DNA of 64,000 bases from a virus (IMGVR_UViG_3300021399_000012:1-64000), one strand, 5' to 3'. Shown: positions 71-59,099, counted from the first letter of the stretch. Notes: a model not told the origin generated them from the letters alone. Numbers and translations: made by a program.

Positions 71-97
71 TTCGCATTATATTCAGCTTTTTATATG
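71..97 (+). promoter_or_regulatory. phage promoter motif TTCGCA-N15-TATATG
   Basis: Exact consensus, upstream of RBS. Confidence 0.75.
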
Positions 98-457: not shown

Positions 458-484
458 TTCGCATTATATTCAGGTTCGTATATG
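458..484 (+). promoter_or_regulatory. phage promoter motif
   Basis: TTCGCA-N15-TATATG directly after terminator. Confidence 0.75.
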
Positions 485-728: not shown

Positions 729-758
729 AGGAGGTTTTTACAGCCTCCTCTTTCTTTT
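729..758 (+). terminator. intrinsic terminator
   Basis: AGGAGG(T/C) stem plus T-rich tail. Confidence 0.75.
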
Positions 759-783
759 CGCATTATATTCAGGTTCGTATATG
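757..783 (+). promoter_or_regulatory. phage promoter motif
   Basis: Identical to 458-484 copy. Confidence 0.75.
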
Positions 784-1024: not shown

Positions 1025-1051
1025 TTCGCAATTTTTTCTGGTTTATATATG
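1025..1051 (+). promoter_or_regulatory. phage promoter motif
   Basis: TTCGCA-N15-TATATG. Confidence 0.75.
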
Positions 1052-1171: not shown

Positions 1172-1207
1172 AAGGGCTTGATAGATATTCAAGTCCTTCG
1201 TCTTTTT
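1172..1207 (+). terminator. intrinsic terminator
   Basis: AAGGGCTTGA/TCAAGTCCTT stem plus T-run. Confidence 0.7.
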
Positions 1208-1232
1208 CGCATTATATTCAGATACGTATATG
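1206..1232 (+). promoter_or_regulatory. phage promoter motif
   Basis: TTCGCA-N15-TATATG. Confidence 0.75.
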
Positions 1233-2862: not shown

Positions 2863-2889
2863 TTCGCAAGAATTTCCATTATATATATG
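2863..2889 (+). promoter_or_regulatory. phage promoter motif
   Basis: TTCGCA-N15-TATATG. Confidence 0.7.
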
Positions 2890-11687: not shown

Positions 11688-11885
11688 ATGGAAAAACTTA
11701 TATTTAGTTGTGAGTTTCCAGCAGATTCCTCTGAAGCTGAGAGACTTACAGATTGGTTAATCACAAATCGTGTTAGAAGAGTAGTTACATCATCTAGTTT
11801 CAAGAAGGGTGTTATATTCACATCATACTTTATAGAATGCACAAATAAAATGCAACTTAAAAGATTATTAGACCTTTTCGCATAA
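11688..11885 (+). CDS. hypothetical protein
   Basis: GGAAGGAG RBS. Confidence 0.65.
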   Translation: MEKLIFSCEFPADSSEAERLTDWLITNRVRRVVTSSSFKKGVIFTSYFIECTNKMQLKRLLDLFA

Positions 11886-11903
11886 TTTACAGTCCAGATT
11901 ATA
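11877..11903 (+). promoter_or_regulatory. phage promoter motif (variant)
   Basis: TTCGCA-N15-ATTATA(GG). Confidence 0.5.
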
Positions 11904-12090: not shown

Positions 12091-12117
12091 TTCGTATTAT
12101 ATTCAACCATGTATATA
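12091..12117 (+). promoter_or_regulatory. phage promoter motif abutting RBS
   Basis: TTCGTA-N15-TATATA followed immediately by GGAGGTG. Confidence 0.7.
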
Positions 12118-12324: not shown

Positions 12325-13518
12325 ATGGCCTTCGAATTATATCCGCATCAAGAAGCGGCGTTGAGAAAAATGAAAAACGGTTGCATTCTTAATGGCGGAG
12401 TTGGTAGTGGTAAGTCAATAACCGCAATAGCTTATTATTTTTTCAAGAACGGTGGAATCTATGAACATCATCACATGATGCCAATGGTTAAAAAGCAGTT
12501 TCTTGTAATCATAACGACTGCTAGAAAAAGAGATACCTTCGAATGGAATAAGGAGTTGTCACTTTTCGATCTATATGTCGAGAACGGAGACGCTGTTATA
12601 GATTCGTGGAATAACATAAAGAAGTATTCTGATATGAAAGATGCATTCTTTATATTTGACGAGCAACGAGCTTCTGGATCAGGAGCTTGGGTAAAGGCAT
12701 TCCTAAAGATCGCGAAATCTAATGAGTGGATACTGTTGTCAGCGACTCCTGGTGATTCATGGGTTGAATACGCTCCAGTTTTTGTGGCGAATGGTTTCTA
12801 TAAAAACATAACCGAGTTTAAAAGAGAGCATGTTGTTATGAGTCATTACGGAGGATATCCAAAAATTGACAGGTATATAAATACTGTTCGATTGAATAAA
12901 CTCAGGAGATCTATATTGGTTGATATGGATTTCAAGCGTAAGACTAATAGAGTGCACATAAACGTTTGGGTTCCTTGGGATAATGTAGCTTATAAAAGAG
13001 CTATAAAAACCAGGTTTAATGAGGAAACCGGTGAACCATTTAAGAACGCATCTGCATTATGTTATTATTTAAGAATGATTCTAAATAGTAATCCAGATCG
13101 CTTAGTCTTTACGTACGATATTCTTAAAGAAAAGAAGAAGGCTATTATATTCTACAATTTTGACTACGAGCTGTATATGCTTGAACAAATGCTAGATGAG
13201 TACTCTATACCATATGGAGAATGGAATGGACATCAACACAATCCGATTCCAGATACTGACACATGGGCGTATTTAGTTCAGTACAATGCTGGCTCAGAAG
13301 GCTGGAATTGTACAAGATGCGATACAGTTATATTCTACAGTCAAAATTATTCATACAAGATGACAGAACAAGCTTGCGGTAGAATAGACAGACTTAACAC
13401 ACCGTATAATAATTTATATTATTATCATTTGAAGTCTAAGGCCGGAATAGACTTGGCAATAGCTAAAGCATTGAAAGATAAAAAGAATTTTAATGAGTCA
13501 GCTTGGACTTCGCAATAA
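12325..13518 (+). CDS. superfamily 2 (SNF2/DEAD-like) helicase
   Basis: GGVGSGKS Walker A, FIFDEQ Walker B, LLSATP motif III, QACGRIDR motif VI. Confidence 0.85.
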   Translation: MAFELYPHQEAALRKMKNGCILNGGVGSGKSITAIAYYFFKNGGIYEHHHMMPMVKKQFLVIITTARKRDTFEWNKELSLFDLYVENGDAVIDSWNNIKKYSDMKDAFFIFDEQRASGSGAWVKAFLKIAKSNEWILLSATPGDSWVEYAPVFVANGFYKNITEFKREHVVMSHYGGYPKIDRYINTVRLNKLRRSILVDMDFKRKTNRVHINVWVPWDNVAYKRAIKTRFNEETGEPFKNASALCYYLRMILNSNPDRLVFTYDILKEKKKAIIFYNFDYELYMLEQMLDEYSIPYGEWNGHQHNPIPDTDTWAYLVQYNAGSEGWNCTRCDTVIFYSQNYSYKMTEQACGRIDRLNTPYNNLYYYHLKSKAGIDLAIAKALKDKKNFNESAWTSQ

Positions 13519-13535
13519 TTTCAACCTCTTATATG
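13509..13535 (+). promoter_or_regulatory. phage promoter motif
   Basis: TTCGCA-N15-TATATG; no ORF downstream. Confidence 0.7.
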
Positions 13536-14449: not shown

Positions 14450-14692
14450 ATGATATACATTATAGCTATTATAGCATTGATTATTGGTATTATATTTGGA
14501 ATCTTTATCGGTGTCAGGATGAAAGTATCCGAAGTACCTAATGTTGGTACCTTATGCGTCGATATGGATTCTGCTGGTTTTTTCTGGGTTGAATTTTCAG
14601 ATAGATCGACTTTTGAATCTATGAAAAATAAATACCTTAATAAGCAGGTTCGTATGAAGGTGAAACCTGTGCATTATGAAAAGACGCAATAA
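14450..14692 (+). CDS. hypothetical membrane protein
   Basis: N-terminal TM helix. Confidence 0.7.
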   Translation: MIYIIAIIALIIGIIFGIFIGVRMKVSEVPNVGTLCVDMDSAGFFWVEFSDRSTFESMKNKYLNKQVRMKVKPVHYEKTQ

Positions 14693-14709
14693 TTTCCGTT
14701 TCTTATATG
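14683..14709 (+). promoter_or_regulatory. phage promoter motif
   Basis: GACGCA-N15-TATATG. Confidence 0.65.
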
Positions 14710-14747
14710 GGTAATTGGTGCCCGTTTAACATTAAGGAGGTATAGAA

Positions 14748-15167: not shown

Positions 15168-15192
15168 AGTATCTATTATATTAAACAAAACC

Positions 15193-15225: not shown

Positions 15226-15241
15226 AGAAGGAGAAACAACA

Positions 15242-15505: not shown

Positions 15506-15532
15506 TTCGCAAGGTTTTCAACCATCTATATG
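15506..15532 (+). promoter_or_regulatory. phage promoter motif
   Basis: TTCGCA-N15-TATATG. Confidence 0.7.
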
Positions 15533-15552
15533 GAATATTAATAAACATATAA

Positions 15553-15765: not shown

Positions 15766-15770
15766 TATCA

Positions 15771-15799
15771 AGACCTTAGCAAGTCTTTAAACTGCTAAA
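15771..15799 (+). repeat. 29-bp dispersed element (copy 4, GTCTTT variant)
   Basis: One substitution. Confidence 0.9.
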
Positions 15800-15804
15800 A
15801 CTTT

Positions 15805-15831
15805 TTCGCAATATTTACAGTTTCATATATG
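15805..15831 (+). promoter_or_regulatory. phage promoter motif
   Basis: TTCGCA-N15-TATATG. Confidence 0.7.
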
Positions 15832-15873
15832 GAAAAATCAGCATTTTGCAATGATGGTAAATTCATTACTACA

Positions 15874-15902
15874 AGACCTTAGCAAGTCTTTAAACTGCTA
15901 AA
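15874..15902 (+). repeat. 29-bp dispersed element (copy 5, GTCTTT variant)
   Basis: One substitution; no RBS-led ORF upstream. Confidence 0.9.
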
Positions 15903-15942
15903 ACTTTTTTAGGTAATTATATTATAAGGGAGGTAACTTAAT

Positions 15943-16626
15943 ATGATTAAAATCAACGGAAAGACATTGTCAACATTAACTTGCATTGGTGGTGCTGTAT
16001 CGCTTGGAGGATTGATCACATACTTATGTGTGGATTCCGCTAAGAAAAGCAAGGCTGCTAAAGAGGAAAGAGAAAAGAAGTATCAGTATGAAAGAAAGGG
16101 TATCCTGGCGACGCTGGATGCTAATCCTATTCCAGAAGATATCGATATCTCCAACGCTACATTTGCTAATAAGGCATTTACAGGCGAGGAAAAGGCAGCA
16201 GCTAGAAAGGTTATCAAATATTATATTGATATCGCTGAGTGCGCAGAGAAGTCTATCAGGAATTCAAAGGACACAATTGAAATCCAGAATAGATTACTCG
16301 ACAAGTACCTTGACAATGTAAACCAGGCTAAAAACATTATATCTGATTTCACAAATCCTAATTTCTCAGCTGACATCATTAAGAGTGTGCTCGTGTACCA
16401 GTCATCTGTTCTTGCAGACATTGCAAAGGCAGCGGAGGAAGCACAAGCCCGTAAGGACGAGATGGATCGTCTTGATAGAGAGTATCAGATGGAGAAGTTA
16501 AGACTTGATAGAGAGGCAGCAGCTGAACAGCAGAAGCTCGAAGCATTAGCAGTTGCAGCTAAGGCAATGAGCTCCAACGTAAATGTACAGGTTGGAGATG
16601 CTAATGTAACTAAGGAGGAATCTTAA
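15943..16626 (+). CDS. membrane-anchored coiled-coil hypothetical protein
   Basis: N-terminal hydrophobic segment; GGAGGT RBS. Confidence 0.75.
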   Translation: MIKINGKTLSTLTCIGGAVSLGGLITYLCVDSAKKSKAAKEEREKKYQYERKGILATLDANPIPEDIDISNATFANKAFTGEEKAAARKVIKYYIDIAECAEKSIRNSKDTIEIQNRLLDKYLDNVNQAKNIISDFTNPNFSADIIKSVLVYQSSVLADIAKAAEEAQARKDEMDRLDREYQMEKLRLDREAAAEQQKLEALAVAAKAMSSNVNVQVGDANVTKEES

Positions 16627-20128: not shown

Positions 20129-20155
20129 TTCGCATTATTTTCTAGTGCTAATATG
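20129..20155 (+). promoter_or_regulatory. phage promoter motif
   Basis: TTCGCA-N15-AATATG. Confidence 0.65.
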
Positions 20156-30246: not shown

Positions 30247-30469
30247 TTTCTGACACTTTTCTGACACTTTTGTATTTTTTGTCATTTTTCTGACACTTTT
30301 CTGAAAAATCTGACAGAAATGGGAGTAATTTTAGGGTGTACGGACGGTAAAAAATGACAAATTTCTGACACTTTTTGCCATTTCTGACACTTTTCTGACA
30401 CTTTTTTTTCAAAAATGACAAAGCGGAAAGCCTTGCTGGGAGCGGGTTTCAGCGATTTTCTGACACTTT
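30247..30469. repeat. iteron-like array, 7 x TTTCTGACACTTT (putative replication origin)
   Basis: Copies at 30247, 30258, 30287, 30362, 30381, 30392, 30457; extra TGACA/TGTCA cores; adjacent A/T tract; gene-free. Confidence 0.7.
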
Positions 30470-30581: not shown

Positions 30582-30608
30582 TTCGTTATATTTTCAGCGA
30601 CATATATG
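30582..30608 (+). promoter_or_regulatory. phage promoter motif (variant)
   Basis: TTCGTT-N15-TATATG. Confidence 0.55.
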
Positions 30609-30967: not shown

Positions 30968-30994
30968 TTCGCATTATCTTCAGGTGGATATATA
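30968..30994 (+). promoter_or_regulatory. phage promoter motif abutting RBS
   Basis: TTCGCA-N15-TATATA followed immediately by GGAGGTG. Confidence 0.7.
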
Positions 30995-31212: not shown

Positions 31213-31291
31213 ATATTAAACCAAGTATAGATCGTGATAATTTCATGGTCTATATTTTTTTTTTGTCATTTTTCGACTTGCCAATCGTTAC

Positions 31292-31318
31292 AACGCGAAA
31301 ATTTCAACCCCTAATATG
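31292..31318 (+). promoter_or_regulatory. phage promoter motif upstream of nuclease-RNAP operon (variant)
   Basis: AACGCG-N15-AATATG. Confidence 0.5.
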
Positions 31319-31403
31319 AGAGGAGAATAAAAATAGTCCGTTATTTTATAGACTATTATATTCAGCCTCTTAATTTTTTGTTTACTGGGGGAACAATGCT
31401 GAT

Positions 31404-31724
31404 ATGAAAAACGAAAATAAATTTCAATCAGAGCTAATCGAAGAACTAAAATCTTTATTTCCTGGATGCATTGTCCTGAAAAACGATCCTAATTATATTC
31501 AAGGTATACCAGATCTATTAGTGTTATACAAAAAGAAATGGGCTGCCTTAGAATGTAAGAAAACAAAAAATGCAAAGCATAGACCTAATCAAGATTATTA
31601 TGTTGATAAAATGTCTAAGATGTCATATGCAAATTTTGTTTATCCAGAAAATAAGGAGGTAGTGTTAAGTGATCTGGAAAAATCATTCAAACCTAACAGG
31701 AAGACACGCAAAACTAAGTCCTAG
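31404..31724 (+). CDS. VRR-NUC domain nuclease / Holliday junction resolvase-like
   Basis: ENKFQ..LI..L, GIPDLLVL, LECK motifs. Confidence 0.75.
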   Translation: MKNENKFQSELIEELKSLFPGCIVLKNDPNYIQGIPDLLVLYKKKWAALECKKTKNAKHRPNQDYYVDKMSKMSYANFVYPENKEVVLSDLEKSFKPNRKTRKTKS

Positions 31725-32304
31725 TCAATCAGCTAGATGGGCTACAAAAGATTTGGATAATGACGCCGTCTTTAAGATGATCAATTCTGGTTATTCTCAA
31801 GAGATCGGAACGTTACTGCATGAATACGCAGAACAATGTATCCGCTTTTCTTTAAAGATGACTAAGTATTCAAAGAGAGATGTTTTGAAGCATCTATTAA
31901 TTAACAGGATTCCCAGAAACGTTGCTAACGAATATGTAGAAAGATGTTTTGATAATCTTTTACTATATGTTAATGATGCTATTGGTTTCAGAATGGATCC
32001 TGAAGTAATATTATGGTATTCCGATTATATTTTTGGAACAGCAGATGCCATAATGTTCAGAGATAACAAATTACAAATCCATGATTTAAAAACTGGAATA
32101 ACTCCAGCACACATGGAACAATTATTAACATATGCAGCTCTATTCTGCTTAGAGTATAAAATTAAACCTGCAGACATTGATATAGAGTTGAGAATATATC
32201 AGTTAGAGGAGGTTATAGTCCATAAACCGGAAACAGATGAGATCGTTCCGATTATAGACAAAATAGTCACATACAACAAGTGGCTGACTAAAGACTTAGA
32301 TTAA
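31669..32304 (+). CDS. PD-(D/E)XK exonuclease (DUF2800/Cas4-like phage nuclease)
   Basis: HAKLSPS, GTLLH, FGTADAI..IHDLKTG, QLLTYA motifs. Confidence 0.75.
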   Translation: MIWKNHSNLTGRHAKLSPSQSARWATKDLDNDAVFKMINSGYSQEIGTLLHEYAEQCIRFSLKMTKYSKRDVLKHLLINRIPRNVANEYVERCFDNLLLYVNDAIGFRMDPEVILWYSDYIFGTADAIMFRDNKLQIHDLKTGITPAHMEQLLTYAALFCLEYKIKPADIDIELRIYQLEEVIVHKPETDEIVPIIDKIVTYNKWLTKDLD

Positions 32305-32324: not shown

Positions 32325-35300
32325 ATGGAAGAATTCTTTGATGATGATTTTGAAGAAGATTCAGAAGAATCGTTAATGCATTATGGCACTAAACGACATT
32401 CGGGAAGATACAAGTATGGATCTGGTGAGAATCCATATCAGCACGAAGCGTGGTTTGTGTGGAATTACAACACTATAAAAAAGAATAATTTTGGTATTAG
32501 CGATGATGATATCAGAAAAGCCATGGGATACACCGGCAATGGTGGAAAGGCTAAATTTAATAGAGAAAAAGAAAGAGCATTTGACAATATAAAGGATATT
32601 GCAGATGTTATCATGCAGAAAGAAGGTTATACTAGAGATTCAGAAGTTGCGAGAGCACTTGGTATGAGTTCAGGAGACCTTCGAGCATTAAAAGGTATAG
32701 CGAAAGCTAAACAAAATGAGGACCTTATGAGACGTAACTTACAGCTCGTAGAGCATGGTTACAGTTCTAGAAATAAAAGAGCGGAAATGCTCGGTATTCC
32801 AGAATCCACTTTAAGAAATATGGAAAAAGATGGATATATGGAAAGAAATTCTAAAGCATACAATGTTGCTGAAGAAATGAAGAAGTACATCAAAGATGAT
32901 AAATCTTATTATGATGTCGGAAAAGGTATTAATTATTCATTGAACGTTTCTGAACACACGATGCAAGAAGCCCTTACAATTCTGAAGAATCAAGGTTACG
33001 GTGTTCATAACATACAGGTTCCTCAGGCCACAAATCCTGATCAGAAGACTACGGTTTCCGTATTAGGTCCTCAAGGGGCTTCTTGGGCTGATACGATGAA
33101 GAATCAGAATAATATCAGCACTTTTGATATGTATTTTAATGATGATGGAAAAACTAGAAGAGGCATCTATGAGCCAAAATCTATAGATTCATCTAGAATT
33201 AAGATACATTATGGTGATGAGCAGTTCCAGGGTACTTTAGGTACTGATATGGATGGTGTTATACAGCTTCGTAGAGGAGTTGGAGACATATCATTAGGAA
33301 AAGCGTCATACGCTCAGGTTCGTATCATGGTTGATGGTACGCATTACTTAAAAGGTATGGCTATCTATTCTGATAATATGCCTGCTGGAAAAGACATCAT
33401 CTTTAATACTAATAAGCCTAGTGGAACACCAGCTTCTAAAGTATTCAAAAGCTTAAAGACAGTCGACATCAAAGATGCGAATGGTAATGTTATCAAAACA
33501 GAAATTGATAAAGATAATCCTTTTGGAGCAAATATTAAAGCTGGTGGACAGAACTTCTATAAAAATAAAAATGGTGAATATGTCCAGACATCTATTGATA
33601 ATTTTGAGAAAGCAACAGCATCTAATATTAAGAAAAGTATAGATGGTGAAAGATACTCATTATCTGCTGCGAATATTATCAAAGAAGAAGGAGATTGGAA
33701 TCATTATCAAAAGAAGTTGGCTTCTCAGTTCTTATCTAAGCAGCCTATGGAACTCATTAACAAACAGCTGAATTTAACATATGCTGACAAGAATGCTGAA
33801 TTTGAAGAAATTAAGAGTTTAACAAACCCTACTATCAAAAGAAAACTTCTTGCAGACTTCGCTGAATCATGTGATAAAGCAGCTGTTGATTTAAAAGTAG
33901 CAGCTTTACCAGGACAAACAGCTAAAGTAATATTGCCTGTTACTGATCTTAAAGAAGGTGAATGCTATTGTCCTACTTATAAAGATGGTACTTATTTGGC
34001 ATTGGTTAGATATCCACATGCTGGAACTTTCGAAATTCCTATTGTTAAAGTTAATAATAAGAACAAGCAAGGTCAATCTATAGTTGGTCCAAATGCGCAG
34101 GATGCTATCGGAATATCTGCAAAAGATGCAGAACAGCTTTCAGGAGCTGATTTTGATGGCGATACTGTAGTTTGTCTACCTACAACTAGAAAGCCTACAG
34201 CTAATGGTATCTATATTGCTAGTAGAAAGCCATTTGAATCTTTAAAGAACTTCTCTACAAATGAGTATGCTATCTCTGATGAAAGATTCAAAGCTACTGG
34301 AGAGTACATTTTAGGAAAGAATCCTTTAAAGACAGATACTGAGAAAGTAGCTAATCTTAAGAACAAGATAGCAAACGGTTATAAGCCTACTGAAGCCGAC
34401 TTTATAGAAGTTGGTAAAGAAAAGCTTGTTATGACTGAAGATGCTAAGCAAAAGCAAATGGGTGTTGTATCTAACCTTATTACAGATATGACGTTAAAAG
34501 GTGCATCTCCAGATGAATTAGCAAGAGCTACAAAGGCTTCAATGGTCGTAATCGATGCTGTAAAGCATGAACTTGATTACAAGCAAGCATATGAAGATTG
34601 CCGAATTCCTGAGTTAAAGAAGATCTATCAGAAAGAGTACAATGAAGAAACTGGTGAAACAACTGGTGGTGCTTCTACATTGATATCACGTTCTAAGTCA
34701 GAAGTGAGAATCAAAGAAAGAAAAGAAGGCTCTACTGATTACATTGATCCTAAAACAGGAGAAAAAGGAAAGGCTCGTATGTATTACGATCCGAATACCG
34801 GTAAGCGTATCTATACTGAGACTGGTAGAACCTATACCGATAAGAATGGTAACGAGGTGGAGGCTCTTCAGAAAGTAACCCGTATGGCCTATGCGGACGA
34901 TGCCATGGACCTGGTATCCCAAATGGGTACTCAACAGGAAAAGGCATATGCAAGATATGCAAATGCACTTAAAGAGATGGCTAGAGAAAGTAGAAAAGAA
35001 CTCTACAAGACCGACCGTGCCGTATACGATAAGGATGCTAAAGAAAAGTATGCCATCCAGGTAGAAAGACTACAGTCTAAGCTAGAATTAGCAGTTGCTA
35101 ACTCCCCTAGAGAAAGACAGGCCCAGATAGATGCTAATAAGACTATCAAGGAGGCCATTCAGAGAGATCCTTCTCTTAAAGATGACAAAGAGCATAATGC
35201 TAGACTTAGACAACAAGCCATAGCGGCATCCCGGGATAAGTATGGGGCCAAAGGTAAAGATACTAGAATTAAGATAGAAGATGATGAATGGGAAGCTATA

Positions 35301-35525
35301 CAGGCTGGAGCTATATCGGATAGTAAATTAGAGGAGATACTGAAGTATTGCGATCTAGATGTTCTTAGAGAACGTGCAATGCCAAAGACTCAAAAGACAT
35401 TATCCAATGCTCAGGCAGCTAGAATTAAAGCTATGAAGAACTCAGGCTTTACAATAGCTGAAATAGCTGAACAAATGTCGTTGTCAACATCAACAGTGTC
35501 AAAGTACATTAAAGAAGCTGCTTAA
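32325..35525 (+). CDS. single-subunit two-barrel DNA-dependent RNA polymerase (YonO-like) with fused HTH domains
   Basis: GADFDGD (DFDGD at 34149-34163), RYPHAG and QVR...LKG conserved positions; N-terminal HTHs and C-terminal sigma4-like HTH. Confidence 0.8.
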   Translation: MEEFFDDDFEEDSEESLMHYGTKRHSGRYKYGSGENPYQHEAWFVWNYNTIKKNNFGISDDDIRKAMGYTGNGGKAKFNREKERAFDNIKDIADVIMQKEGYTRDSEVARALGMSSGDLRALKGIAKAKQNEDLMRRNLQLVEHGYSSRNKRAEMLGIPESTLRNMEKDGYMERNSKAYNVAEEMKKYIKDDKSYYDVGKGINYSLNVSEHTMQEALTILKNQGYGVHNIQVPQATNPDQKTTVSVLGPQGASWADTMKNQNNISTFDMYFNDDGKTRRGIYEPKSIDSSRIKIHYGDEQFQGTLGTDMDGVIQLRRGVGDISLGKASYAQVRIMVDGTHYLKGMAIYSDNMPAGKDIIFNTNKPSGTPASKVFKSLKTVDIKDANGNVIKTEIDKDNPFGANIKAGGQNFYKNKNGEYVQTSIDNFEKATASNIKKSIDGERYSLSAANIIKEEGDWNHYQKKLASQFLSKQPMELINKQLNLTYADKNAEFEEIKSLTNPTIKRKLLADFAESCDKAAVDLKVAALPGQTAKVILPVTDLKEGECYCPTYKDGTYLALVRYPHAGTFEIPIVKVNNKNKQGQSIVGPNAQDAIGISAKDAEQLSGADFDGDTVVCLPTTRKPTANGIYIASRKPFESLKNFSTNEYAISDERFKATGEYILGKNPLKTDTEKVANLKNKIANGYKPTEADFIEVGKEKLVMTEDAKQKQMGVVSNLITDMTLKGASPDELARATKASMVVIDAVKHELDYKQAYEDCRIPELKKIYQKEYNEETGETTGGASTLISRSKSEVRIKERKEGSTDYIDPKTGEKGKARMYYDPNTGKRIYTETGRTYTDKNGNEVEALQKVTRMAYADDAMDLVSQMGTQQEKAYARYANALKEMARESRKELYKTDRAVYDKDAKEKYAIQVERLQSKLELAVANSPRERQAQIDANKTIKEAIQRDPSLKDDKEHNARLRQQAIAASRDKYGAKGKDTRIKIEDDEWEAIQAGAISDSKLEEILKYCDLDVLRERAMPKTQKTLSNAQAARIKAMKNSGFTIAEIAEQMSLSTSTVSKYIKEAA

Positions 35526-35796: not shown

Positions 35797-35930
35797 TTGA
35801 CTCATTGAATGAATCATTTCTAAATTAAAAAGAAGATTGTTGTGTGATTTAATATTTATTTTGGATTCTTCTTTCTGTTTTCATTCTTTTGGTTGGCACA
35901 CTGAGGCTAATCGGATATAAAAAGAATGGA

Positions 35931-36000
35931 CAGGGGGAGGGGTCCGCTAAATATACACCCCCTCCTATATCGCGGCGGTCTTAAAAAATTCTCCGGAGGG
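35931..36000. other. candidate cos/packaging site
   Basis: GC-rich island (G-run/C-run, CGCGGCGGTC) in AT-rich gap between RNAP operon and terS-HNH-terL. Confidence 0.35.
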
Positions 36001-36013
36001 ATATTTTTAAAAC

Positions 36014-36123
36014 TTATATCGGTATTAGTACTGGGCATTTAAGCGTGAACGCGTGGAAAAATCCCCCAGCTAAAAAGTACACCATAAGTAATGCTTAAGT
36101 GCTCAGTACTGATACTGATATAA
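36014..36123. repeat. 31-bp inverted repeat with 48-nt loop upstream of terminase small subunit
   Basis: 36014-36044 vs 36093-36123, four mismatches, all G-U on + strand. Confidence 0.95.
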
Positions 36124-36154
36124 ATTATATATCAGGTAAAAGGAGTGAAAACTA

Positions 36155-46890: not shown

Positions 46891-47343
46891 ATGTTAACTA
46901 AGACATTTACATTTACAGATTTGGATGGCAACGAGAGAGTTGAGGAGCATTGCTTTCATTTAACAAAGGCTAAACTTTTTGAGATGGAACTTTCTGCAAA
47001 GGGTGGTCTCGACAAGTATATTAGTAGAATCGTTATGGAGCAGGATACTCCTAAGTTGGTAGACCTGTTTAAGGACTTAATTAAGATGTCATATGGAAAG
47101 AAGTCTGAAGATGGTAGAAGATTCATTCAGAGCGATGAGATCTTTAATGAGTTTGCCCAGACAGAGGCTTACTCTCAGTTGTTTATGGAATTAGCAACTA
47201 ACGCTGATGCAGCTTCTGCATTCGTTAATGGTATTGTACCACCAGACATTGCTCAGGCAGCAGGAAATATTCAGATTGATCCTAAGACTGCTAAAGTAAT
47301 TAATTCAGGAGATGTTTCAGCTATGGCTCCAGCATCAGTATAA
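46891..47343 (+). CDS. tail assembly chaperone
   Basis: Follows major tail gene; SYGKKSEDGRRFI pattern. Confidence 0.65.
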   Translation: MLTKTFTFTDLDGNERVEEHCFHLTKAKLFEMELSAKGGLDKYISRIVMEQDTPKLVDLFKDLIKMSYGKKSEDGRRFIQSDEIFNEFAQTEAYSQLFMELATNADAASAFVNGIVPPDIAQAAGNIQIDPKTAKVINSGDVSAMAPASV

Positions 47344-47357
47344 AATAAGGAGTTGAT

Positions 47358-47909
47358 ATGCTTACAGTTAATGTAAAAGGACGTGAATTGTTTGACGAAG
47401 CTAACATGTCATTTTCAGTTACGAAAGACTGTGAGCTTCACTTAGAACATTCATTAATATCGATATCTAAATGGGAGAGCAAATGGCATAAACCGTTCTT
47501 ATCAAATAAAGATCAAGTGACAACTACCGAGTTGTTAGATTACATAAAGTGTATGACTCTTGATAAAAATGTTGATCCAAAGGTTTATATTGCTCTCGCC
47601 AATGATGTCGATGCTATTAAATCTATAAATGATTACATACAAGATCCAATGACAGCAACTTGGTTTTCCGATAAGAAAAAAGGACGAGATTCAGAAGTGA
47701 TCACATCTGAGTTGGTGTACTATTGGATGACTGCATACAATATTCCATTCGAGTGTGAAAAATGGCATATAAACAGATTGATAACATTGATCAGAGTATG
47801 CAGTGAAAAGAATAACCCAGATAAAAAGAAAATGGGTATAAATGAAACAATGAGTCAAAATCGAGCATTAAATGAAGCTCGAAAGAAAGCATTACATACG
47901 AGAGGTTAA
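47358..47909 (+). CDS. probable second tail assembly protein
   Basis: Between chaperone and tape measure; own AAGGAG RBS. Confidence 0.55.
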   Translation: MLTVNVKGRELFDEANMSFSVTKDCELHLEHSLISISKWESKWHKPFLSNKDQVTTTELLDYIKCMTLDKNVDPKVYIALANDVDAIKSINDYIQDPMTATWFSDKKKGRDSEVITSELVYYWMTAYNIPFECEKWHINRLITLIRVCSEKNNPDKKKMGINETMSQNRALNEARKKALHTRG

Positions 47910-47913
47910 GATT

Positions 47914-48186
47914 ATGGGAAATAAAGAAAATACAAATAATCAGACTGAGGAACAGGTTAATGACGTTGTAGCTGAAACAGAAACAAGTAAAGCTTCTGAG
48001 CCTGCAAAGGAATCACCAAAGAATGATGACAAGAAAATTCAAAATAGGGAAGAAGTAGATGATTCAGTTTACAGCAAAGTTGCGCTTCAGGTTAAGTCTG
48101 GACAGTTTGGAACTGGCGAAACATTGAAGAATGCGATCATCGCTAAGGGTTTGGACTACAATAAGGTCATGAAGATGGCTAAGTAA
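47914..48186 (+). CDS. small protein with CW_7 (Cpl-7)-like cell-wall-binding repeat
   Basis: VALQVKSGQFGTGETLKNAIIAKGLDYNKV matches recalled CW_7 pattern V..V..G.(Y/W)G.GE.....L...G.DY..V. Confidence 0.55.
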   Translation: MGNKENTNNQTEEQVNDVVAETETSKASEPAKESPKNDDKKIQNREEVDDSVYSKVALQVKSGQFGTGETLKNAIIAKGLDYNKVMKMAK

Positions 48187-48211
48187 TTATATTTAATCGG
48201 AGTAACGATGA

Positions 48212-48589
48212 ATGATTTCATTTAAAGCAGAGGGGGATTGGTCAAAAACTGACAGTTTTTTAGAGAAAGCCCTAGAAGTTGTTCATCTAGGCAATCTCGA
48301 TAAATATGGAAAAATGGGTGTCGAAGCTTTGGAAAAAGCGACGCCTGTTTATACTGGTTTAGCTTCTAGTTCATGGTATTATGAAATCGAAAGACATGGT
48401 GACACTGTAGAGCTTATATGGTGTAACTCAGATATAGAAAATGGAAAAAATGTAATCGACTTACTAGTTAACGGACATTCTACAAAACGAGGTACATTTG
48501 TTCAAGGAAATGATTTTATAACGCCTGCACTAGAACCAGTATTCAATGAAATAATTGAAGGCGTTGGAAAGGAGGTTAAGAGCTTATGA
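48212..48589 (+). CDS. minor tail/tail completion protein
   Basis: ATP..TG..SSSW.Y pattern; precedes tape measure. Confidence 0.55.
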   Translation: MISFKAEGDWSKTDSFLEKALEVVHLGNLDKYGKMGVEALEKATPVYTGLASSSWYYEIERHGDTVELIWCNSDIENGKNVIDLLVNGHSTKRGTFVQGNDFITPALEPVFNEIIEGVGKEVKSL

Positions 48590-51500: not shown

Positions 51501-54500
51501 ATCAGCTATGTTTACAGCAAGCAAAGGCAAAGGTGTTACTGGAAGTATTAGTGGTATTGGCTTAACTATGTTCGGTCTTGCTGCTAGTTTATTAATGATA
51601 GCATTGGCTATAAAGCAACTTAAAGACGTTGGTTTTGGCGATGCTATTAAATACATGATAGTTATATTAACCGCTGCTGCAGGAATGCTTGTAATGGTTA
51701 AACTATTGGGTGTTGAATCTGCTGCTACTATACCTAGTCTTGGAACTATACTTGGTTTCGCGGCTGGATTATATGTTACCGTGCTAGTGCTTAAGAAACT
51801 GGGCGAAATGGATTGGGAAACTGTAAAAGATGGACTAATCCGAATGATTCCTATATTTGCAGCACTCGAAGCGATAATATGGTCAATTAATAAAGGCAGC
51901 ATAAACGGCAAGACGACAAATCAAGCTGCTAGTGCATTCAAGGGCATTGCATTGATGTTCTTAGCTATAACAGCATCTATTTATATTCTAGGACGCATGG
52001 ACAACGAGGTATTACAGAAAGGTCTTGGAATAGTAACAATCTTATTGTTAATGATCGCTGGTTTAGGCGCGGTTCTTAATCTTACATCTAAGGAATTAGA
52101 ACCAGGAAAGATTGCACAAAGCAAAGATGTCTATACAGGAATAAGCAAGTTGTTAATCAGTATTGCTGGTACTGTATTCTTATTGGGTAATATGAATCCA
52201 ACTAGAATGTGGCAAGGTGTAGGCGCTATAGGTATAATATTAGCTTTCTTAGCTGCTTTAGGCGCATTTGCTAACTTCAAGTTGAAAGGTACTGCTTTAA
52301 CAGTATCTATGGTTAAGACTATGACTAGTCTTATAGTATCGATAGCAGTATCATTAGTACTAGTATCCAACTTATGCAGAGATCCAGCTAGACTGTGGTC
52401 TGCAGTAGCCGCTATTGGAATTATATTGTTCGCATTGGCTGCATTATCAGGAGGATTAGCTAAGGTTAATCTGAAAGGATTTGCGAAAGCTAATGTTCTT
52501 AAAAATGCTATTATAGCTATAGGCATGCTAGTTGTCGTAGCTGGTGCTTTATGGGCATTATCCACATTTACTAATCCGGAAAATCTTATAGCTAGTTGCA
52601 TTGCTATTGGTGTTGTGTTTGCCGAGGTTATTGCAGCTTTACTTGTACTATCTGGTATATCAAGCATAGCACCACAAGCCGGAATGGGCGTTGCATTATC
52701 ACTACTTTTATTAGGCGGAGTCGCTTTAATATTAGGAGCACTGGTACATTTTACAAGCGTTGACGAATGTAAGACAATCGTTGAGATGCTAGCTGCTCTT
52801 TTCGCATCTTTAATAGTCACACTAGTTGTGCTAACTGGTGTTGGAGCAGTGGGAGAACTAGCTATAGCCGGAATTGCACTAATGGATATCCTACTCCTTG
52901 ATATAATCGGCATGCTAGCACTTATAGGAGCTATAGCAAACGATTCAAAAGCAGTTGATAAAGGACTAGAAGTTCTTCAAAAAGTTGCAGATGGTATTGG
53001 AAAAGCGATAAGTATGTTCTTAGAATCAGCCGCATCTTCTCTTCCAGCTATAGGTGATTATATTAGCCAATTTATATCTAATATCGAACCAGCCATAAGT
53101 CAACTTTCAGAAATGAAAGATGCGAATGTGGGTTCAGCATTGAGTGGAATAGCTGACATCATAGGCACATTGATGACATTCAAAATAGGGGATCTTCCAA
53201 CAGAAGAAGAACTTAAGTCTCTGGCAGAACGACTTGGACAAGTATCATATATGATTATACTCATGTATGCAATGTTCAAGAATGCTGGTTTTACTACCTT
53301 CGGTCTTGCTAAAAAGATGTTTAAGAATGTTGCAGAAGCAATGGGATCGCTCAATGAGATGATTTCACAAATAACTGGCAACGGTGATGGCGATGTATGG
53401 AAACGCGGCGCTAGAGATATATTAAACTATTCAAAAGAAGATATGACTACTTTGGCTGAACGATTAGGACAGCTAGGTTATATGCTAATTTTGATATATA
53501 ACGAGTTCTCTAATGCCGGATTTAAGAACTTTGGACTGGCAAAAACCTTATTCCCTAATATAGCTGATGCTATGAAAGGATTGAACACACTAGTGGCTCA
53601 ACTAACAGGCAATGGTGATGGCAACATGTTCAAAGAAGGTGTTGCTGCTCTTAGGCAATACACCGAAGAAGACTTATCATTGGTTGCTGAACGTTTGGGT
53701 CAGTTAGGTTATATGTTGATTGTAATATATAACGAGTTTTCTAATGCAGGCTTCAAGAACTTCGGATTAGCAAAAACCTTATTTAAAAACATAGCCACAG
53801 CAATGAAGGACTTAGGCGAATTTGTATCTGAGGTAACTGGAGGGGTATTTAAAAAAGGTCTAGCAGATCTTGCGAGCATTGATGCAATAACACTGGCTGA
53901 TGCTGCAACTAAATTAGGAGCATTAGGCTTCATGCTGATAGTATTTTACAGAATGTTCAATGCTGCTGGTTTTGTAGATTTTGGAATGGCCCAGAAGTTA
54001 TTCCCGAATGTATCAGCTGCAATGGATGGTCTTGCTGATATGTCAGCTCATGCACAGATGGTTCCTTGGGAGTCATTGGCGGCTATGCCTATTGAAGTAT
54101 TCCAGAAAGCTGGAACTAATATGGCTGCTTTAGGTCTTATATTAGTTGCATATTGGAATATATTTGGTGAAGCTGGATTCAAGACATTTAGCGAAGCTAA
54201 GAAGATGTTTGCTAATACCGCAGACGCATTTGATAGCTATGTAGTACTATGTCAAAAACTTCTAGATAATTCTAGTGTTCTTGCTGGTGTTGCTGATACT
54301 ATAAAGACTGAGTCGATCGCAGCTGTCGGAAATACATTAACGACATATGCACAAACTATGGTTGATGTAGGTCTTATAGCCAAAGACATTGATAATGGCG
54401 CGTTTGATTATTTAGCTGGTGCAACTGACAAATGGACTAAGCTATTTGACAATCTTCCAGATGAGGGTGCTCGTAAATCATTACTCGACGTGGCAGACAC

Positions 54501-55467
54501 AATAAAAGAGTACTCTACAAGGGTCGCTAAGATAGATTTCGATAGCTCTAATACTGCTATGCTTGAAAGTTTTGCAGGAGCGCTTGATGCTGTTTCTGAT
54601 AAAATTAAGAAAGCTGCAGATAAAGCTAATGAAACAATGAAGTCATTTGCTAATGGCTTGGTTAGCATATTTAAAGAGAATACCAGCAAACCTTTTAAGG
54701 AAGCTACTGATGCATTCTTGAGTCAGATTGCAGGTACAATATCAAAAAATAAGACCATAACGTCAAATTTGACATCGTTATCAACACGAATGGTTTCTTC
54801 GTTTAACCAAAACGGAAAATTGTCAAATCAGGCTAATAGTTCTGGTAGATATTTTGCAGACGGAATCGCTCAGGGTGTTGAAAACAATTCACATAGAGCT
54901 GTAAACGCTGCTAGAAATCTAGGTATTGACATGAAGAAAGCGTATAACAAAGCAGTTAAGATCAAGTCACCATCTAGAGAAATGCGTAAGTCTGGTGGAT
55001 TCTTTGTAGAAGGTATCATTAAGGGTGTATATGATAAATATTCAGAAGCGCTTGATGCTGTTAGAGATCTCGGTAGAGATTCAATTAACATCTTTACAAA
55101 CGCAATGGCTGCTATAAGTAACATATTACCTGAAGATATAGAATTAACACCTACAATAACTCCAGTAGTGGATATGAGCAACGTCAGAGCATCTGCTGGA
55201 CTTATCAAAGATACTTTCGGAACTGTAGGATTCGGTTTAGACCAGTATGCTATGGATAATATCGATAGTATAAACATTGGAGTTTCCGCACTTCAAAATA
55301 AGGGAAATTCAGAAGTTGTTAATGCAATTGACAAACTTAGAAGCGAGATTTCTAATCTCAATAGTAATACATACAACGTTGATGGTATCACATACGACGA
55401 CGGATCTAATATATCAGACGCAGTACAGACTTTGGTTAGTGCTGCTAGAGTGGAAAGGAGGGCTTAA
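48586..55467 (+). CDS. tape measure protein
   Basis: 2293 aa, Ala/Leu-rich, central hydrophobic region, internal repeats. Confidence 0.9.
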   Translation: MSDSVDEKVVRIKFDNEKFEQKVKNTMQSLKNLKESLNFEGAAKGLENFERVANSFKLSHIEDSLNVIEKRFSTLGIIGASVINNLTTSAMGALSNAGNAIENMISGGGLNRAQNIEKAKFQLNGLGIAWETVSDDIDFAVNKTAYGLDAAALAASTLAASGVAIGDSFKTITDPRDGVEKQISHMAVSLKAISGVAAQTQSEYSDIANIFSTVAGQGQLMTMQLRQLEMRGMNAASIIAEHMGMSEAEVREGLSKGLVDYETFAEAMYDKFADHASDANNTLNGVLANIRAAFAKIGQSFYTPLIENEGPLVKFLDKIRGYVNELKKDIEPKDGEPTLIGSLVSMSKDFIAIADDLFSKLDHSTLGSWLNSLHEPIDRLHEKVMDMYDSIWGVEKKTKVTATEWSNISKLLGADSDKLRDSFIQMARDNGIAIDEMIASTGSFENSLNNGWLSVDAFEQKINELKSGVSDTATSQEDLNKVLEEYSAVVHDVWMGKYGDDDVRRKNLTDLGYEASVIQELVNKGQDYQLTLDDIASVTANLSGENAVTSESLDGLSKALNDNSEAIDKNLRKSKTELSVAEKFQKTFDNIVATADWVRAAISAAWFVMFGGEKDSKNILDSIATTLYNISDVIKNDIKSNIGDLTNTFKGLFAAVDIIRIVFVDIINLVRMTFAKVTGDANMSILDLTGGIGELIVQFHDWLESSPFIADAIDKISSAIAFVITKINDLLGLTPKIKDSTNKVSIFSKAWEKLKTVVTVVAGGLAAIVMSLVLAVKDLIEAFREMDGFSFDNVTKAFDNFKKKLTSDINGKINVEFGLADKLDELNGRMHEKYFAITQGAGEFKNRITDIFANIFGSFDLDSIMDGAGTLVTVWSFTRMVKALKSINPVETFNNVLGAVAKTVTEYGRMLKSKEVMFIAIGVGILCASLALLIHTIKDVPLSDLATAVGIIAGLAITLTACFIALQKLSDSSAMFTASKGKGVTGSISGIGLTMFGLAASLLMIALAIKQLKDVGFGDAIKYMIVILTAAAGMLVMVKLLGVESAATIPSLGTILGFAAGLYVTVLVLKKLGEMDWETVKDGLIRMIPIFAALEAIIWSINKGSINGKTTNQAASAFKGIALMFLAITASIYILGRMDNEVLQKGLGIVTILLLMIAGLGAVLNLTSKELEPGKIAQSKDVYTGISKLLISIAGTVFLLGNMNPTRMWQGVGAIGIILAFLAALGAFANFKLKGTALTVSMVKTMTSLIVSIAVSLVLVSNLCRDPARLWSAVAAIGIILFALAALSGGLAKVNLKGFAKANVLKNAIIAIGMLVVVAGALWALSTFTNPENLIASCIAIGVVFAEVIAALLVLSGISSIAPQAGMGVALSLLLLGGVALILGALVHFTSVDECKTIVEMLAALFASLIVTLVVLTGVGAVGELAIAGIALMDILLLDIIGMLALIGAIANDSKAVDKGLEVLQKVADGIGKAISMFLESAASSLPAIGDYISQFISNIEPAISQLSEMKDANVGSALSGIADIIGTLMTFKIGDLPTEEELKSLAERLGQVSYMIILMYAMFKNAGFTTFGLAKKMFKNVAEAMGSLNEMISQITGNGDGDVWKRGARDILNYSKEDMTTLAERLGQLGYMLILIYNEFSNAGFKNFGLAKTLFPNIADAMKGLNTLVAQLTGNGDGNMFKEGVAALRQYTEEDLSLVAERLGQLGYMLIVIYNEFSNAGFKNFGLAKTLFKNIATAMKDLGEFVSEVTGGVFKKGLADLASIDAITLADAATKLGALGFMLIVFYRMFNAAGFVDFGMAQKLFPNVSAAMDGLADMSAHAQMVPWESLAAMPIEVFQKAGTNMAALGLILVAYWNIFGEAGFKTFSEAKKMFANTADAFDSYVVLCQKLLDNSSVLAGVADTIKTESIAAVGNTLTTYAQTMVDVGLIAKDIDNGAFDYLAGATDKWTKLFDNLPDEGARKSLLDVADTIKEYSTRVAKIDFDSSNTAMLESFAGALDAVSDKIKKAADKANETMKSFANGLVSIFKENTSKPFKEATDAFLSQIAGTISKNKTITSNLTSLSTRMVSSFNQNGKLSNQANSSGRYFADGIAQGVENNSHRAVNAARNLGIDMKKAYNKAVKIKSPSREMRKSGGFFVEGIIKGVYDKYSEALDAVRDLGRDSINIFTNAMAAISNILPEDIELTPTITPVVDMSNVRASAGLIKDTFGTVGFGLDQYAMDNIDSINIGVSALQNKGNSEVVNAIDKLRSEISNLNSNTYNVDGITYDDGSNISDAVQTLVSAARVERRA

Positions 55468-57982: not shown

Positions 57983-59071
57983 ATGAGCGTGGATTGGCTG
58001 GCGTCAATGACGCATACTTACGAATTCTATATAGTAGATCCTGTCACATGGGGCGATAAGATGCGAATTGACACAGTCACTGCATGCTCTATAAGATACG
58101 ACGACTCTGTAGAAACTCTGGCAACTGCATCATTTACACTAACCGAAGAGATCGGAGAAGTGTATGTAAGAGTATATATGGTTGTCATTCAAAATGGGGT
58201 AAAAATGAGAATTCCATTAGGTACATTTCTAGCCACATCACCGAATGTTTCATTTGATGGTAAGGTGAAAAGTGTATCTATAGAATCATATTCCCCACTA
58301 CTTGAATTAAAAGAGAAGTATACTCCTATTGGATATACGGCTCCAAAGAATCAAGAAATATTACCGCTCTTAGCGACACTATGCGAAGAAAATATGCGTA
58401 GTCCGGTTTTAAAACCATCATTTAAGAGTGATAAATTTCAAGATGATTTTATAGCAGGCGGTGATGAGACGTGGCTTAGTTTTATAACAGCTGCGTTAAA
58501 AGCCGCTAACTATAAATTTGAATTTGACGAAAACTTTAGGGTAATGTTCGCTCCTGTTCAGGACGTAAGATCATTACAACCTAAATGGATATATAACGAT
58601 GATAATAGTTCAATCTTGCAACCGCAAATAACTATTTCTAGAGATCTATATGGAATACCAAATGTGGTAGAAGTTGTGTATTCGAGATCTGGAAATGCCA
58701 ATTCTGTTATGCGTTCGGTCGTTAAAAATGATGACCCTTCGAACCCGCTATCTGTTCAAGCTAGAGGCAGAGAAATAGTATACAGAGAAACATCACCGAA
58801 CATAATCGGTATACCTACTCAAGAGTATCTGGATGATTATGCCGAGAAGTTACTTAGAAAGAAATCGTCTTTGGAATGTTCTTTAAGTTATACTCACGGC
58901 TATTGTCCAGTTAGAGTTGGTGATGCGGTGTTGTTGAACTACAATAGACTTGGCTTGTTGAATGTAAAAGCCAAAGTAACATCACAAACATTGACTTGTG
59001 ATTCTGGTGCACAGGTAAGTGAGACCGCAGTCTTCACAACTGAACTCTGGAATCCATTTACTTCAAAATAG
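57983..59071 (+). CDS. minor tail / baseplate hub-like protein
   Basis: Position; YDDSVETLATASF, PNVVEVVYS, CPVRVGD patterns. Confidence 0.6.
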   Translation: MSVDWLASMTHTYEFYIVDPVTWGDKMRIDTVTACSIRYDDSVETLATASFTLTEEIGEVYVRVYMVVIQNGVKMRIPLGTFLATSPNVSFDGKVKSVSIESYSPLLELKEKYTPIGYTAPKNQEILPLLATLCEENMRSPVLKPSFKSDKFQDDFIAGGDETWLSFITAALKAANYKFEFDENFRVMFAPVQDVRSLQPKWIYNDDNSSILQPQITISRDLYGIPNVVEVVYSRSGNANSVMRSVVKNDDPSNPLSVQARGREIVYRETSPNIIGIPTQEYLDDYAEKLLRKKSSLECSLSYTHGYCPVRVGDAVLLNYNRLGLLNVKAKVTSQTLTCDSGAQVSETAVFTTELWNPFTSK

Positions 59072-59099
59072 GGTAAAGATATTAAGAAAGGGATAACTA

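Follow-up and report, generated by a model that had tools for sequence, protein, structure and literature searches.

A single-chain two-barrel RNA polymerase with fused helix-turn-helix units, candidate reader of a conserved three-box promoter in a ruminant-gut phage

The virion RNA polymerase of phage N4, which belongs to the unrelated T7-like class, is packaged, injected and reads early promoters. A two-barrel polymerase of 2,166 residues, gp66 of the crAss-like phage phi14:2 (PDB 6VR4), likewise travels in the virion and, once injected, transcribes from early promoters. How single-chain two-barrel polymerases recognize promoters is poorly understood. YonO of the Bacillus prophage SPbeta, a phage-specific siphovirus enzyme of this kind with a DxDGD loop, acts on late genes; no promoter has been assigned to it, and its presence in virions is not reported (Forrest et al., 2017, PMC5467207). 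For the siphoviruses P23-45 and P74-26, the accessible part of Chaban et al. (2024, PMC10770324) describes two two-barrel polymerases, a virion enzyme within the tape-measure protein (gp96) and a non-virion enzyme (gp64/gp62), each linked to a promoter motif of its own 5' of mapped starts; it describes no defined recognition domains. Here we analyse bases 1-64000 (the window) of the 72,052-bp IMG/VR virus record IMGVR_UViG_3300021399_000012, and in particular a gene at 32325..35525 whose product is, judging by its sequence and modeled structure, almost certainly an RNA polymerase.

Like YonO, the protein appears to be a single-chain two-barrel polymerase of a siphovirus. Unlike YonO, for which no fused helix-turn-helix (HTH) units are reported (the two were compared by description), it carries four. 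Compared with the P23-45 enzymes as covered in that account, the present gene is single and free-standing, its product has an N-terminal leader and fused HTHs, and the tape measure is separate (48586-55467). The best reading, which we hold to be about evenly balanced, is that the polymerase is delivered in the virion and reads the early and middle promoters. A flexible N-terminal leader (acidic, then L-x-H-Y-G and a basic glycine/aromatic stretch) would steer copies of the enzyme into the assembling particle, and the polymerase would enter the cell together with the DNA. There it would start at about 25 promoters of one class (TTCGCA-N15-TATATR, hereafter class I), with initiation at or beside the final purine. 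Recognition would be achieved by the HTHs, three N-terminal and one C-terminal, within a DNA-dependent single-chain two-barrel polymerase, and class I would drive all early and middle genes, the polymerase's own operon included. The late block (36-68 kb) would use a second motif, TCAAAATRRGG, read either by this enzyme in another mode or by the host polymerase with a phage factor. In this scheme we infer the identity of the promoter reader, that the present phage packages the enzyme, and what the leader does. The parts of the gene are as follows (aa, amino acids; all on the plus strand; invariance refers to 96 diverse homologues):

32325..35525: gene for a 1066-aa predicted single-chain two-barrel RNA polymerase with fused HTHs (open reading frame, PHROG match, AlphaFold2 model, fold matches)
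32325..32447: aa 1-41, disordered N-terminal leader with an acidic stretch, L17-M-H19-Y-G21, then TKRHSGRYKYGSGENPYQ (predicted local distance difference test, pLDDT, below 50)
32451..32849: aa 43-175, three N-terminal HTH-like units (consensus and model helices)
33162..35009: aa 280-895, two-barrel catalytic core (range of the VIA-align comparison)
33315..33356: aa 331-344, QVR..LKG segment of the first (beta-like) barrel; Q331, R333, K343 and G344 invariant
34008..34025: aa 562-567, RYPHAG; R562 and P564 invariant, H565 at least 90%
34143..34163: aa 607-613, GADFDGD metal-binding loop of the second (beta-prime-like) barrel; G607, A608, D609, D611, G612 and D613 invariant
35280..35519: aa 986-1065, C-terminal helical/HTH domain, the last HTH at about 1025-1065

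An earlier model-made description of this DNA (the sequence-only reading) had reported the 1066-aa reading frame with these three catalytic segments; all are present as described and near-invariant in the homologues. The beta-like barrel residues Q331, R333, K343 and G344 are presumed, by analogy, to have a role in the polymerase. PDB sequence searches with the protein and with the 96-member profile returned HTH repeat proteins only and no polymerase, and thus a fold comparison was needed. An AlphaFold2 model built on the 96-homologue alignment reached a mean pLDDT of 86.2 and a predicted template modeling score (pTM) of 0.80. In Foldseek, QDE-1 ranked first (E=1.5e-7), then plant RDR2; the Thermus-phage polymerases were also found (P74 gp62, E=5e-5; P32 gp64, E=5.5e-5; P23-45 gp96, E=7.7e-3), phi14:2 gp66 was marginal (E=0.07), and cellular polymerase large subunits ranked after these. 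VIA-align over residues 280-895 gave Z scores of 14.9 for ZmRDR2, 13.8 for QDE-1, 13.1 for P74 gp62 and about 10 for Pol II Rpb1. The predicted structure makes it a solid conclusion that the fold belongs to the double-psi beta-barrel (two-barrel) superfamily, as the sequence-only reading had anticipated; the outcome named there as a refutation, a predicted structure lacking this fold, did not arise.

HTHs are fused at both ends, again as anticipated, with one change in number: the N-terminal segments, counted earlier as two, are three by consensus and model helices (43-66, 80-143 and 149-175), with the repeated pattern G-x-S-x-x-E-I-A-x-x-x-G-x-S-x-S-T-x-R. Residues 141-172 give weak MerR/Xre HTH matches, and the profile matches HTH repeat proteins in the PDB. 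The C-terminal unit stands as an HTH (HTH_24, 24.1 bits, above the cut-off of 21.9), but the sigma4-like label does not carry over to this protein, for which the match is a generic HTH one: Sigma70_r4 (22.3 vs 24.1 bits) and Sigma70_r4_2 (22.6 vs 25.7) stay below their Pfam gathering cut-offs. Sigma70_r4_2 is matched by 44 of 50 homologues at E<=1e-3. The C-terminal unit may thus work like a sigma-4/LuxR-type HTH while falling short of the Sigma-70 region 4 cut-off.

The gene belongs to a described family. It matches phrog_4291 ('RNA-dependent RNA polymerase') at E=2.1e-297 (residues 91-1064 against profile positions 44-907 of 909), and tblastn against 50,697 phage records found homologues in 250 isolate phage genomes, with 33-40% identity across 98% of the protein. 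The hosts of these isolates are Arthrobacter, Gordonia, Streptomyces, Lactococcus, Curtobacterium, Microbacterium, Rhodococcus and Faecalibacterium; Bacillus phages are absent from the named match groups at E<=1e-5, among the matches listed. Clustered at 90% identity, the metagenomic homologues form more than 7,800 groups; at 50% identity, 1,943 clusters reach E<=0.001, and the nearest relative beyond its own species shares 45-53% identity. Koert et al. (2021, bioRxiv 10.1101/842583) described the polymerase as a signature gene of a phage supercluster with BLASTP matches only inside it, and already reported the DxDGD motif, the HHpred link to Pfam RdRP and the HTHs at both ends; the Scarif phage paper merely lists the gene. 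Hence the gene itself is not new, the polymerase-HTH family having been described computationally. The present protein shares family, domain order and synteny with the supercluster polymerase and is a divergent member, about 100-150 aa longer than its relatives. An exonuclease gene (31669-32304) lies 5' of it and a small open reading frame (ORF) and the HNH/TerL block 3', an order that is identical in FP_oengus, ReqiPoco6, 1706, Mudcat and Rima. Two IMG/VR homologues contain one in-frame stop each (G010:C1:842-1936, TGA; G006:C1:25432-26190, TAA), which could reflect sequencing error, a broken gene or recoding.

The family label raises the alternative that the protein is not a phage transcriptase: it could act as an RNA-dependent RNA polymerase, synthesize primers, or regulate genes by binding DNA, with a retained polymerase fold. 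RefSeq and PHROG both use the RNA-dependent label, the nearest solved folds are QDE-1 and RDR2, and the gene lies in a replication/recombination module beside the exonuclease. However, the label was inherited from weak similarity to Pfam RdRP (PF05183), which is not among the best 25 families for this protein at E<=1 and is matched by 11 of 50 homologues (best E=5.3e-6). QDE-1 and RDR2 are the best structural matches over the catalytic core, but they share 10-16% sequence identity with it and are eukaryotic enzymes with another biological role and no HTHs; moreover, QDE-1 itself is reported to have DNA-dependent activity (PMC9508822). YonO and the P23-45 enzymes are DNA-dependent transcriptases, the four fused HTHs point to sequence-specific binding of double-stranded DNA, and across about 2,000 clusters the catalytic residues do not vary. 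We therefore consider a non-transcriptase function very improbable.

The candidate target of the polymerase is class I. The exact pattern occurs ten times in the window against 0.1 expected, always on the plus strand, between 71 and 30994. On the full genome, a relaxed pattern finds 19 unique sites and a position weight matrix (PWM) about 25, all on the plus strand, with a gap in scores (8.7, then 2.8) and a best minus-strand score of 5.0. The sites span 69.6 kb, across the wrap of the record, to 31.3 kb, and none lies in 31.4-69.5 kb. Those in the window, all on the plus strand, are:

71..97: class-I site (pattern and PWM, 45.9)
458..484: class-I site directly 3' of a hairpin plus T-run (pattern and PWM, 48.0)
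757..783: class-I site (pattern and PWM)
1025..1051: class-I site (pattern and PWM)
1206..1232: class-I site (pattern and PWM)
2863..2889: weaker class-I site (pattern and PWM)
11877..11903: class-I variant (PWM only, 22.3)
12091..12117: class-I site, TATATA adjoining GGAGGTGA (pattern and PWM)
13509..13535: class-I site (pattern and PWM)
14683..14709: class-I variant (PWM only, 12.6)
15506..15532: class-I site (pattern and PWM)
15805..15831: class-I site (pattern and PWM)
20129..20155: class-I site with AATATG (pattern and PWM)
30582..30608: class-I variant (PWM only, 24.2)
30968..30994: class-I site, TATATA adjoining GGAGGTGA (pattern and PWM)
31292..31318: weak class-I variant (ACGCGAAAATTTCAACCCCTAATATG) at the head of the endonuclease-exonuclease-polymerase operon, in the gap 31213-31403 (PWM, 8.7)

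The layout is TTCGCR - N6 - TWCA - N5/6 - TATATR, and most sites are preceded by a hairpin or another element ending in a T-run. A sigma-A promoter has TTGACA and TATAAT boxes 16-18 nucleotides (nt) apart and a start 6-8 nt after the -10 box; class I does not have this form. At 12091, 30968, 69796, 70120, 70391 and 71669, TATATA directly adjoins a perfect Shine-Dalgarno (SD) sequence GGAGGTGA, with ATG 13-15 nt on. A start 6-8 nt past a -10 box would remove this SD, which places the predicted start at or beside the last purine. T7-type promoters have a start of this kind as well. The spacer is constant at 15 nt, and the last base of the box is G or A rather than T; a constant spacer and a missing -7 T point in the same direction, away from sigma-A. 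Furthermore, sigma-A-like sites are not enriched on the plus strand genome-wide (22 vs 23 in shuffles), nor are consensus sigma-70 sites at 30-48 kb (56 vs 66 expected). Of 30 early ORFs scanned against PHROG, none matched a sigma factor or a known transcription factor, and about half of these ORFs have no family, so that absence is not established. That class I is not a sigma-A promoter is, on these sequence features, a solid conclusion, and the distinctness claimed for it earlier holds by geometry, SD abutment and lack of sigma-A-like enrichment. The split of two motif classes by genome region, proposed from the window, also persists on the full 72-kb record.

Several other repeated elements occur near these sites. 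A 29-nt element, AGACCTTAGCAAGTCT(A/T)TAAACTGCTAAA, is found at 992, 1559, 12057, 15771, 15874 and 20360 and again at 70.1-71.7 kb of the record; it lies just 5' of class-I promoters, in the place that a hairpin terminator takes in other units, and may be an alternative terminator or a regulatory RNA. ATTATATT has 70 copies on the plus strand of the window and none on the minus strand, and stands just 5' of an SD at 1600, 1777, 3250, 10380, 15916, 26467 and 48186, with many other copies in codons. We considered it as a true promoter core and rejected it: about half of the copies lie in codons (I-I-F/L, N-Y-I), and the count is inflated by tail-fibre repeats. TATAAT occurs 34 times on the plus and 145 times on the minus strand of the full genome.

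The architecture of class I extends to the relatives. Lactococcus phage 1706 has ten copies (TTCGCAtgTTTTACAtataCTATAGTAG; motif tttTTCGCAtgTTTTACAtataCTATAGTAGaaag), the Faecalibacterium phage FP_oengus 13 (motif CGCGAAAAAtnCAGnnnnCTTTATGG), Arthrobacter phage Mudcat six (TCGCGTAAATTACAnGGGCTATAATR) and Streptomyces phage Rima, with a guanine-cytosine (GC) content of 59%, eleven (tCGCAnnnTTTACAnGnCCTATARTGAGACCCC). Every relative opened has three-box sites, always grouped on the coding strand where the early region begins. The spacing of the CGCR, TWCA and TATA boxes is kept across hosts of two phyla with differing genomic GC, the spacer being 14 nt in 1706, Mudcat and Rima and one base longer in FP_oengus and the present phage. 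This conservation shows that the predicted promoter is clade-wide and strongly constrained. When 2.9 million IMG/VR viral contigs were scanned with CGCRNNNNTTACANNNNCTATART alone, more than 107 stretches were returned, and 14 of 15 motif-picked contigs tested (all >=45 kb) encode the polymerase, the miss being a 189-kb contig with a single match; the base rate among isolate phages is 250/50,697. The polymerase with its four HTH units is thus the obvious conserved candidate for the reader of class I, and we think it probable that it has this function. Motif and polymerase could nevertheless travel together by descent, so that their co-occurrence is no proof of reader and target. A search for published work on transcription in 1706-like phages yielded nothing of use; the promoter set, its clade-wide conservation and the link between leader, DUF7211 cargo and virion annotation appear to be new in the literature searched. 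Within Rima, GGGGTTTGGGTTT occurs eleven times at 8649-16291, mostly about 30-70 nt 5' of a class-I-type promoter, and may be the clade's terminator in a high-GC host.

The second motif class of the sequence-only reading, which was not spelled out there, was recovered as TCAAAATRRGG and is confined to the late region. Nine exact copies against 0.2 expected lie in the window (40354-59073); the full genome has eleven and a variant at 37734, all on the plus strand, at 37.7-67.7 kb. Many stand just 5' of the SDs of late genes. Five copies share the 12-mer TTCAAAATAGGG, two of them within genes in different reading frames, which indicates constraint on the nucleic acid. TCAAAATG is enriched in the late region of 1706 (7/8 copies), and the related AAATCAAAATGG occurs in FP_oengus. 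The late motif may be a late promoter or an RNA-level signal. Its copies in the window, all on the plus strand, are:

37734..37744: variant TCAAAATACGG, 5' of the large terminase gene
40354..40364: late motif, 5' of the connector gene
42154..42164: late motif, 5' of the portal gene
45440..45450: late motif (12-mer TTCAAAATAGGG), after the capsid gene
46822..46832: late motif, intergenic
48039..48049: late motif (12-mer), within an ORF
53180..53190: late motif (12-mer), within the tape-measure gene, in a frame different from that of the 48039 copy
55293..55303: late motif, within the tape-measure gene
58189..58199: late motif, within an ORF
59063..59073: late motif (12-mer), 5' of ORF 59100

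These sites allow another division of labor, in which the enzyme is made after infection and transcribes the late block only, while class I is read by the host polymerase with a phage activator, comparable to the T4 middle promoters with MotA/AsiA. YonO transcribes the SPbeta late genes (PMC5467207), and the polymerase gene lies immediately 5' of the late operon. The strand-specific excess of the late motif (9 vs 0.2 expected), the 12-mer in two frames and the echoes in the late regions of 1706 and FP_oengus would fit as well, and the downstream box of class I in actinophages and 1706 (TATAAT/TATAGT) is a usable -10 element. However, the box in the present phage and FP_oengus (TATATG/TTTATG) has no -7 T and in FP_oengus also no -11 A, the SD adjoins the box in six class-I sites, and the clade has no known conserved activator. 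Moreover, no upstream element is conserved with the late motif, and several of its copies lie inside genes. A polymerase restricted to late genes is hence quite unlikely in our judgment.

Delivery in the virion, as opposed to synthesis in the cell, is suggested by annotation of the homologues. Orf75 of 1706 was labeled 'structural protein' in the original deposit (EU081845.1) and relabeled later in RefSeq, and ReqiPoco6 gp106 is annotated as 'structural protein, similar to 1706_gp75 structural protein'. Garneau et al. in 2008 reportedly identified 15 virion proteins of 1706 by sodium dodecyl sulfate-polyacrylamide gel electrophoresis and liquid chromatography-tandem mass spectrometry. The polymerase operon lies behind the class-I variant at 31292; if class I needs the enzyme, the first copy must arrive with the particle. 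The encapsidation proposed by the sequence-only reading thus gains backing from the homologues, by deposit label in 1706 and by similarity in ReqiPoco6, while packaging in the present phage would follow by extension.

The leader is a second line of evidence. N-terminal SLMHYGTKRHSGRY is kept family-wide, with H19, G21, S26, G27, G32 and G34 invariant or nearly so; all tblastn alignments of the polymerase begin at L17, and the family consensus is [short, often acidic]-L-x-H-Y-G-[TV]-x-R-x-S-G-R-Y-P-W-G-S-G-x-x-P-Y-Q. Within the first 45 residues, L-x-H-[YHAG]-[GEM] occurs in five of the 102 predicted window proteins, the polymerase and four head-module proteins, whereas an L-x-H frequency of 0.0015 per residue predicts about 0.15 such proteins by chance. 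The L falls exactly at residue 17 (H at 19) in four of the five, the polymerase and the products of 39509, 40742 and 41133; in 36906 the motif is at residue 9. The head-region leader described earlier is thus present, conserved in the family and in the same register in three head proteins. The head-module genes, all on the plus strand, are:

36906..37727: head-module protein with a DUF7211-type N-terminus YLAHHGIRGQKWG (DUF7211, E=4.8e-4)
39509..40318: head-module protein with the 19-aa leader plus DUF7211 (YLEHHGVDGQKWG; DUF7211, E=1.5e-5)
40742..41113: coiled-coil protein of the head module, again with the 19-aa leader (ALSH)
41133..42152: basic protein of the head module, also carrying the 19-aa leader (ALEH)
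43512..45413: prohead protease (S78), linker and major capsid protein fused; the linker has repeated hydrophobic-x-H-[AS]-[DE] sites

Two of the head proteins carry the DUF7211 motif L-x-H-H-G-[IV]-x-G-x-K-W-G and score 19.9 and 24.7 bits against DUF7211 (PF23847; cut-off 27). Orf7 of 1706, labeled structural in the deposit and encoded just 5' of the terminase, has two leader-type motifs and FP_oengus gp69 one. When the N-terminal 60 residues of the 39509 product served as query, the leader turned up on ADP-ribosyltransferase, papain-fold Gln-deamidase, GNAT and HTH proteins, and in phage contigs of about 60 kb (P0282, P0288, P0308, P0329, P0324) the DUF7211 N-terminus is fused to ADP-ribosyltransferase (PF03496), glutamine deamidase toxin (PF15644) and GNAT domains. 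Pfam searches limited to the N-terminal 60 residues, for the polymerase and for two leader proteins, were uninformative, and DUF7211 is unmentioned in the literature searched. By analogy, the pairing of one leader with different payloads suggests what a modular delivery tag would produce. Phage T4 has capsid-targeting sequences on its internal proteins and Alt, with the motif L/I-x-E cut by gp21. The two systems are alike in having short N-terminal leaders on unrelated proteins near head genes, an ADP-ribosyltransferase payload and a hydrophobic-x-charged/His motif; unlike T4, the leader here has L-x-H-[YH]-G followed by a conserved glycine/aromatic stretch, and the protease is of the S78 type and fused to the capsid protein. 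We tentatively regard the leader as a virion-targeting signal, at a little below even probability, whereas cleavage after His19 seems unlikely. The linker of the capsid fusion has a duplicated T/A-V-E-D-V-F-N-T-L-x-E-x-Q-K-x-V-V-Y-A-x-I-G-Q-A between acidic runs.

Several observations weigh against virion delivery and against the polymerase as reader. The polymerase N-terminus has no match to the DUF7211 hidden Markov model at E<=10, and an hhalign comparison of its leader with DUF7211 is weak (probability 42%, P=2.6e-4), with segments anchored on the motif. The 'structural' label in 1706 is also borne by two small replication-module proteins (orf62, orf71), and thus some co-purifying contaminants are possible. 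The polymerase gene adjoins the late block, a position that would be expected of a YonO-like enzyme acting late. Known virion polymerases (N4; P23-45) pass to a second polymerase, and only one polymerase gene was found here. The co-occurrence of motif and polymerase could reflect shared descent in one clade, and the case for this phage is assembled from sequence and predicted structure. The enzyme might instead be unpackaged, as in T7: made early by the host polymerase from an unrecognised promoter, it would then read class I as middle promoters. The promoter evidence fits this equally well, the virion label in 1706 might stem from an abundant protein carried over, and the gene lies at the extreme right end beside cos in 1706 and the actinophages, an end that, by analogy with lambda, may enter first. 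On the other hand, there is no convincing sigma-A promoter 5' of the polymerase operon, where the sole promoter-like element is the class-I variant at 31292. Moreover, the first dense units of promoter, small gene and terminator, typical of immediate-early genes, are all class I, and the conserved disordered leader common to the head-module proteins would be left unexplained. Synthesis from a host-read promoter appears rather unlikely to us, and on balance we lean slightly towards a polymerase delivered in the virion.

The family combines a defined, conserved promoter of about 27 bp with HTHs in the polymerase chain, and its cultured members, Lactococcus phage 1706 and hundreds of SEA-PHAGES isolates, have genetics. 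Promoter finding by a minimal cellular-type polymerase in the absence of sigma or TFB is thus directly testable, and the family could yield an orthogonal transcription system that is compact and not related to T7. From the shared leader, a simple tag that loads proteins into siphovirus particles is suggested, with relevance to the delivery of anti-host effectors. Because human and ruminant gut viromes are rich in this family, correcting the misleading labels 'RNA-dependent RNA polymerase' and 'HTH DNA-binding protein' would improve many annotations. In its widest form, the proposal is that a huge siphovirus clade of gut, dairy and soil hosts, with thousands of clusters, performs early transcription without host sigma, through a single-chain two-barrel polymerase that reads a three-box promoter with its own HTHs and owes its place in the virion to an L-x-H-[YH]-G leader, itself a version of a general DUF7211 cargo tag that also injects ADP-ribosyltransferase, deamidase and acetyltransferase effectors; taken as a whole, we consider this conceivable but doubtful.

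The genome setting is as follows. The record has a 127-bp terminal overlap, which identifies it as a complete, circularly permuted assembly, and the mid-record position of the polymerase gene results from this permutation. All genes in the window are on the plus strand, and GC is 33-40%. The public runs that hold the phage are DNA metagenomes of ruminant and other animal guts, with no RNA run among those listed; the host environment is the ruminant gut. A megablast of 10 kb against isolate phages found no match. Two further features are:

35797..36154, strand not assigned: non-coding gap of 358 nt between the polymerase module and the late operon
6341-10375: primase-polymerase fusion of 1344 aa (phrog_4210), kept in FP_oengus, 1706, Mudcat and Rima

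The gap holds GC-rich inverted segments (GGGGGAGGGG ... CCCCCTCC), and the physical genome ends of 1706, ReqiPoco6, Mudcat and Rima fall at the equivalent position. By synteny, it is the probable cos/pac region. Upstream, seven copies of TTTCTGACACTTT lie within a 250-nt non-coding stretch at 30247-30469, an iteron-like array that could be a replication origin or a regulator array. Finally, GCTAATTATATTGA repeats at 60-, 90- and 120-nt spacing in ORF 60514+ (61051-61600) are tail-fibre coding repeats.

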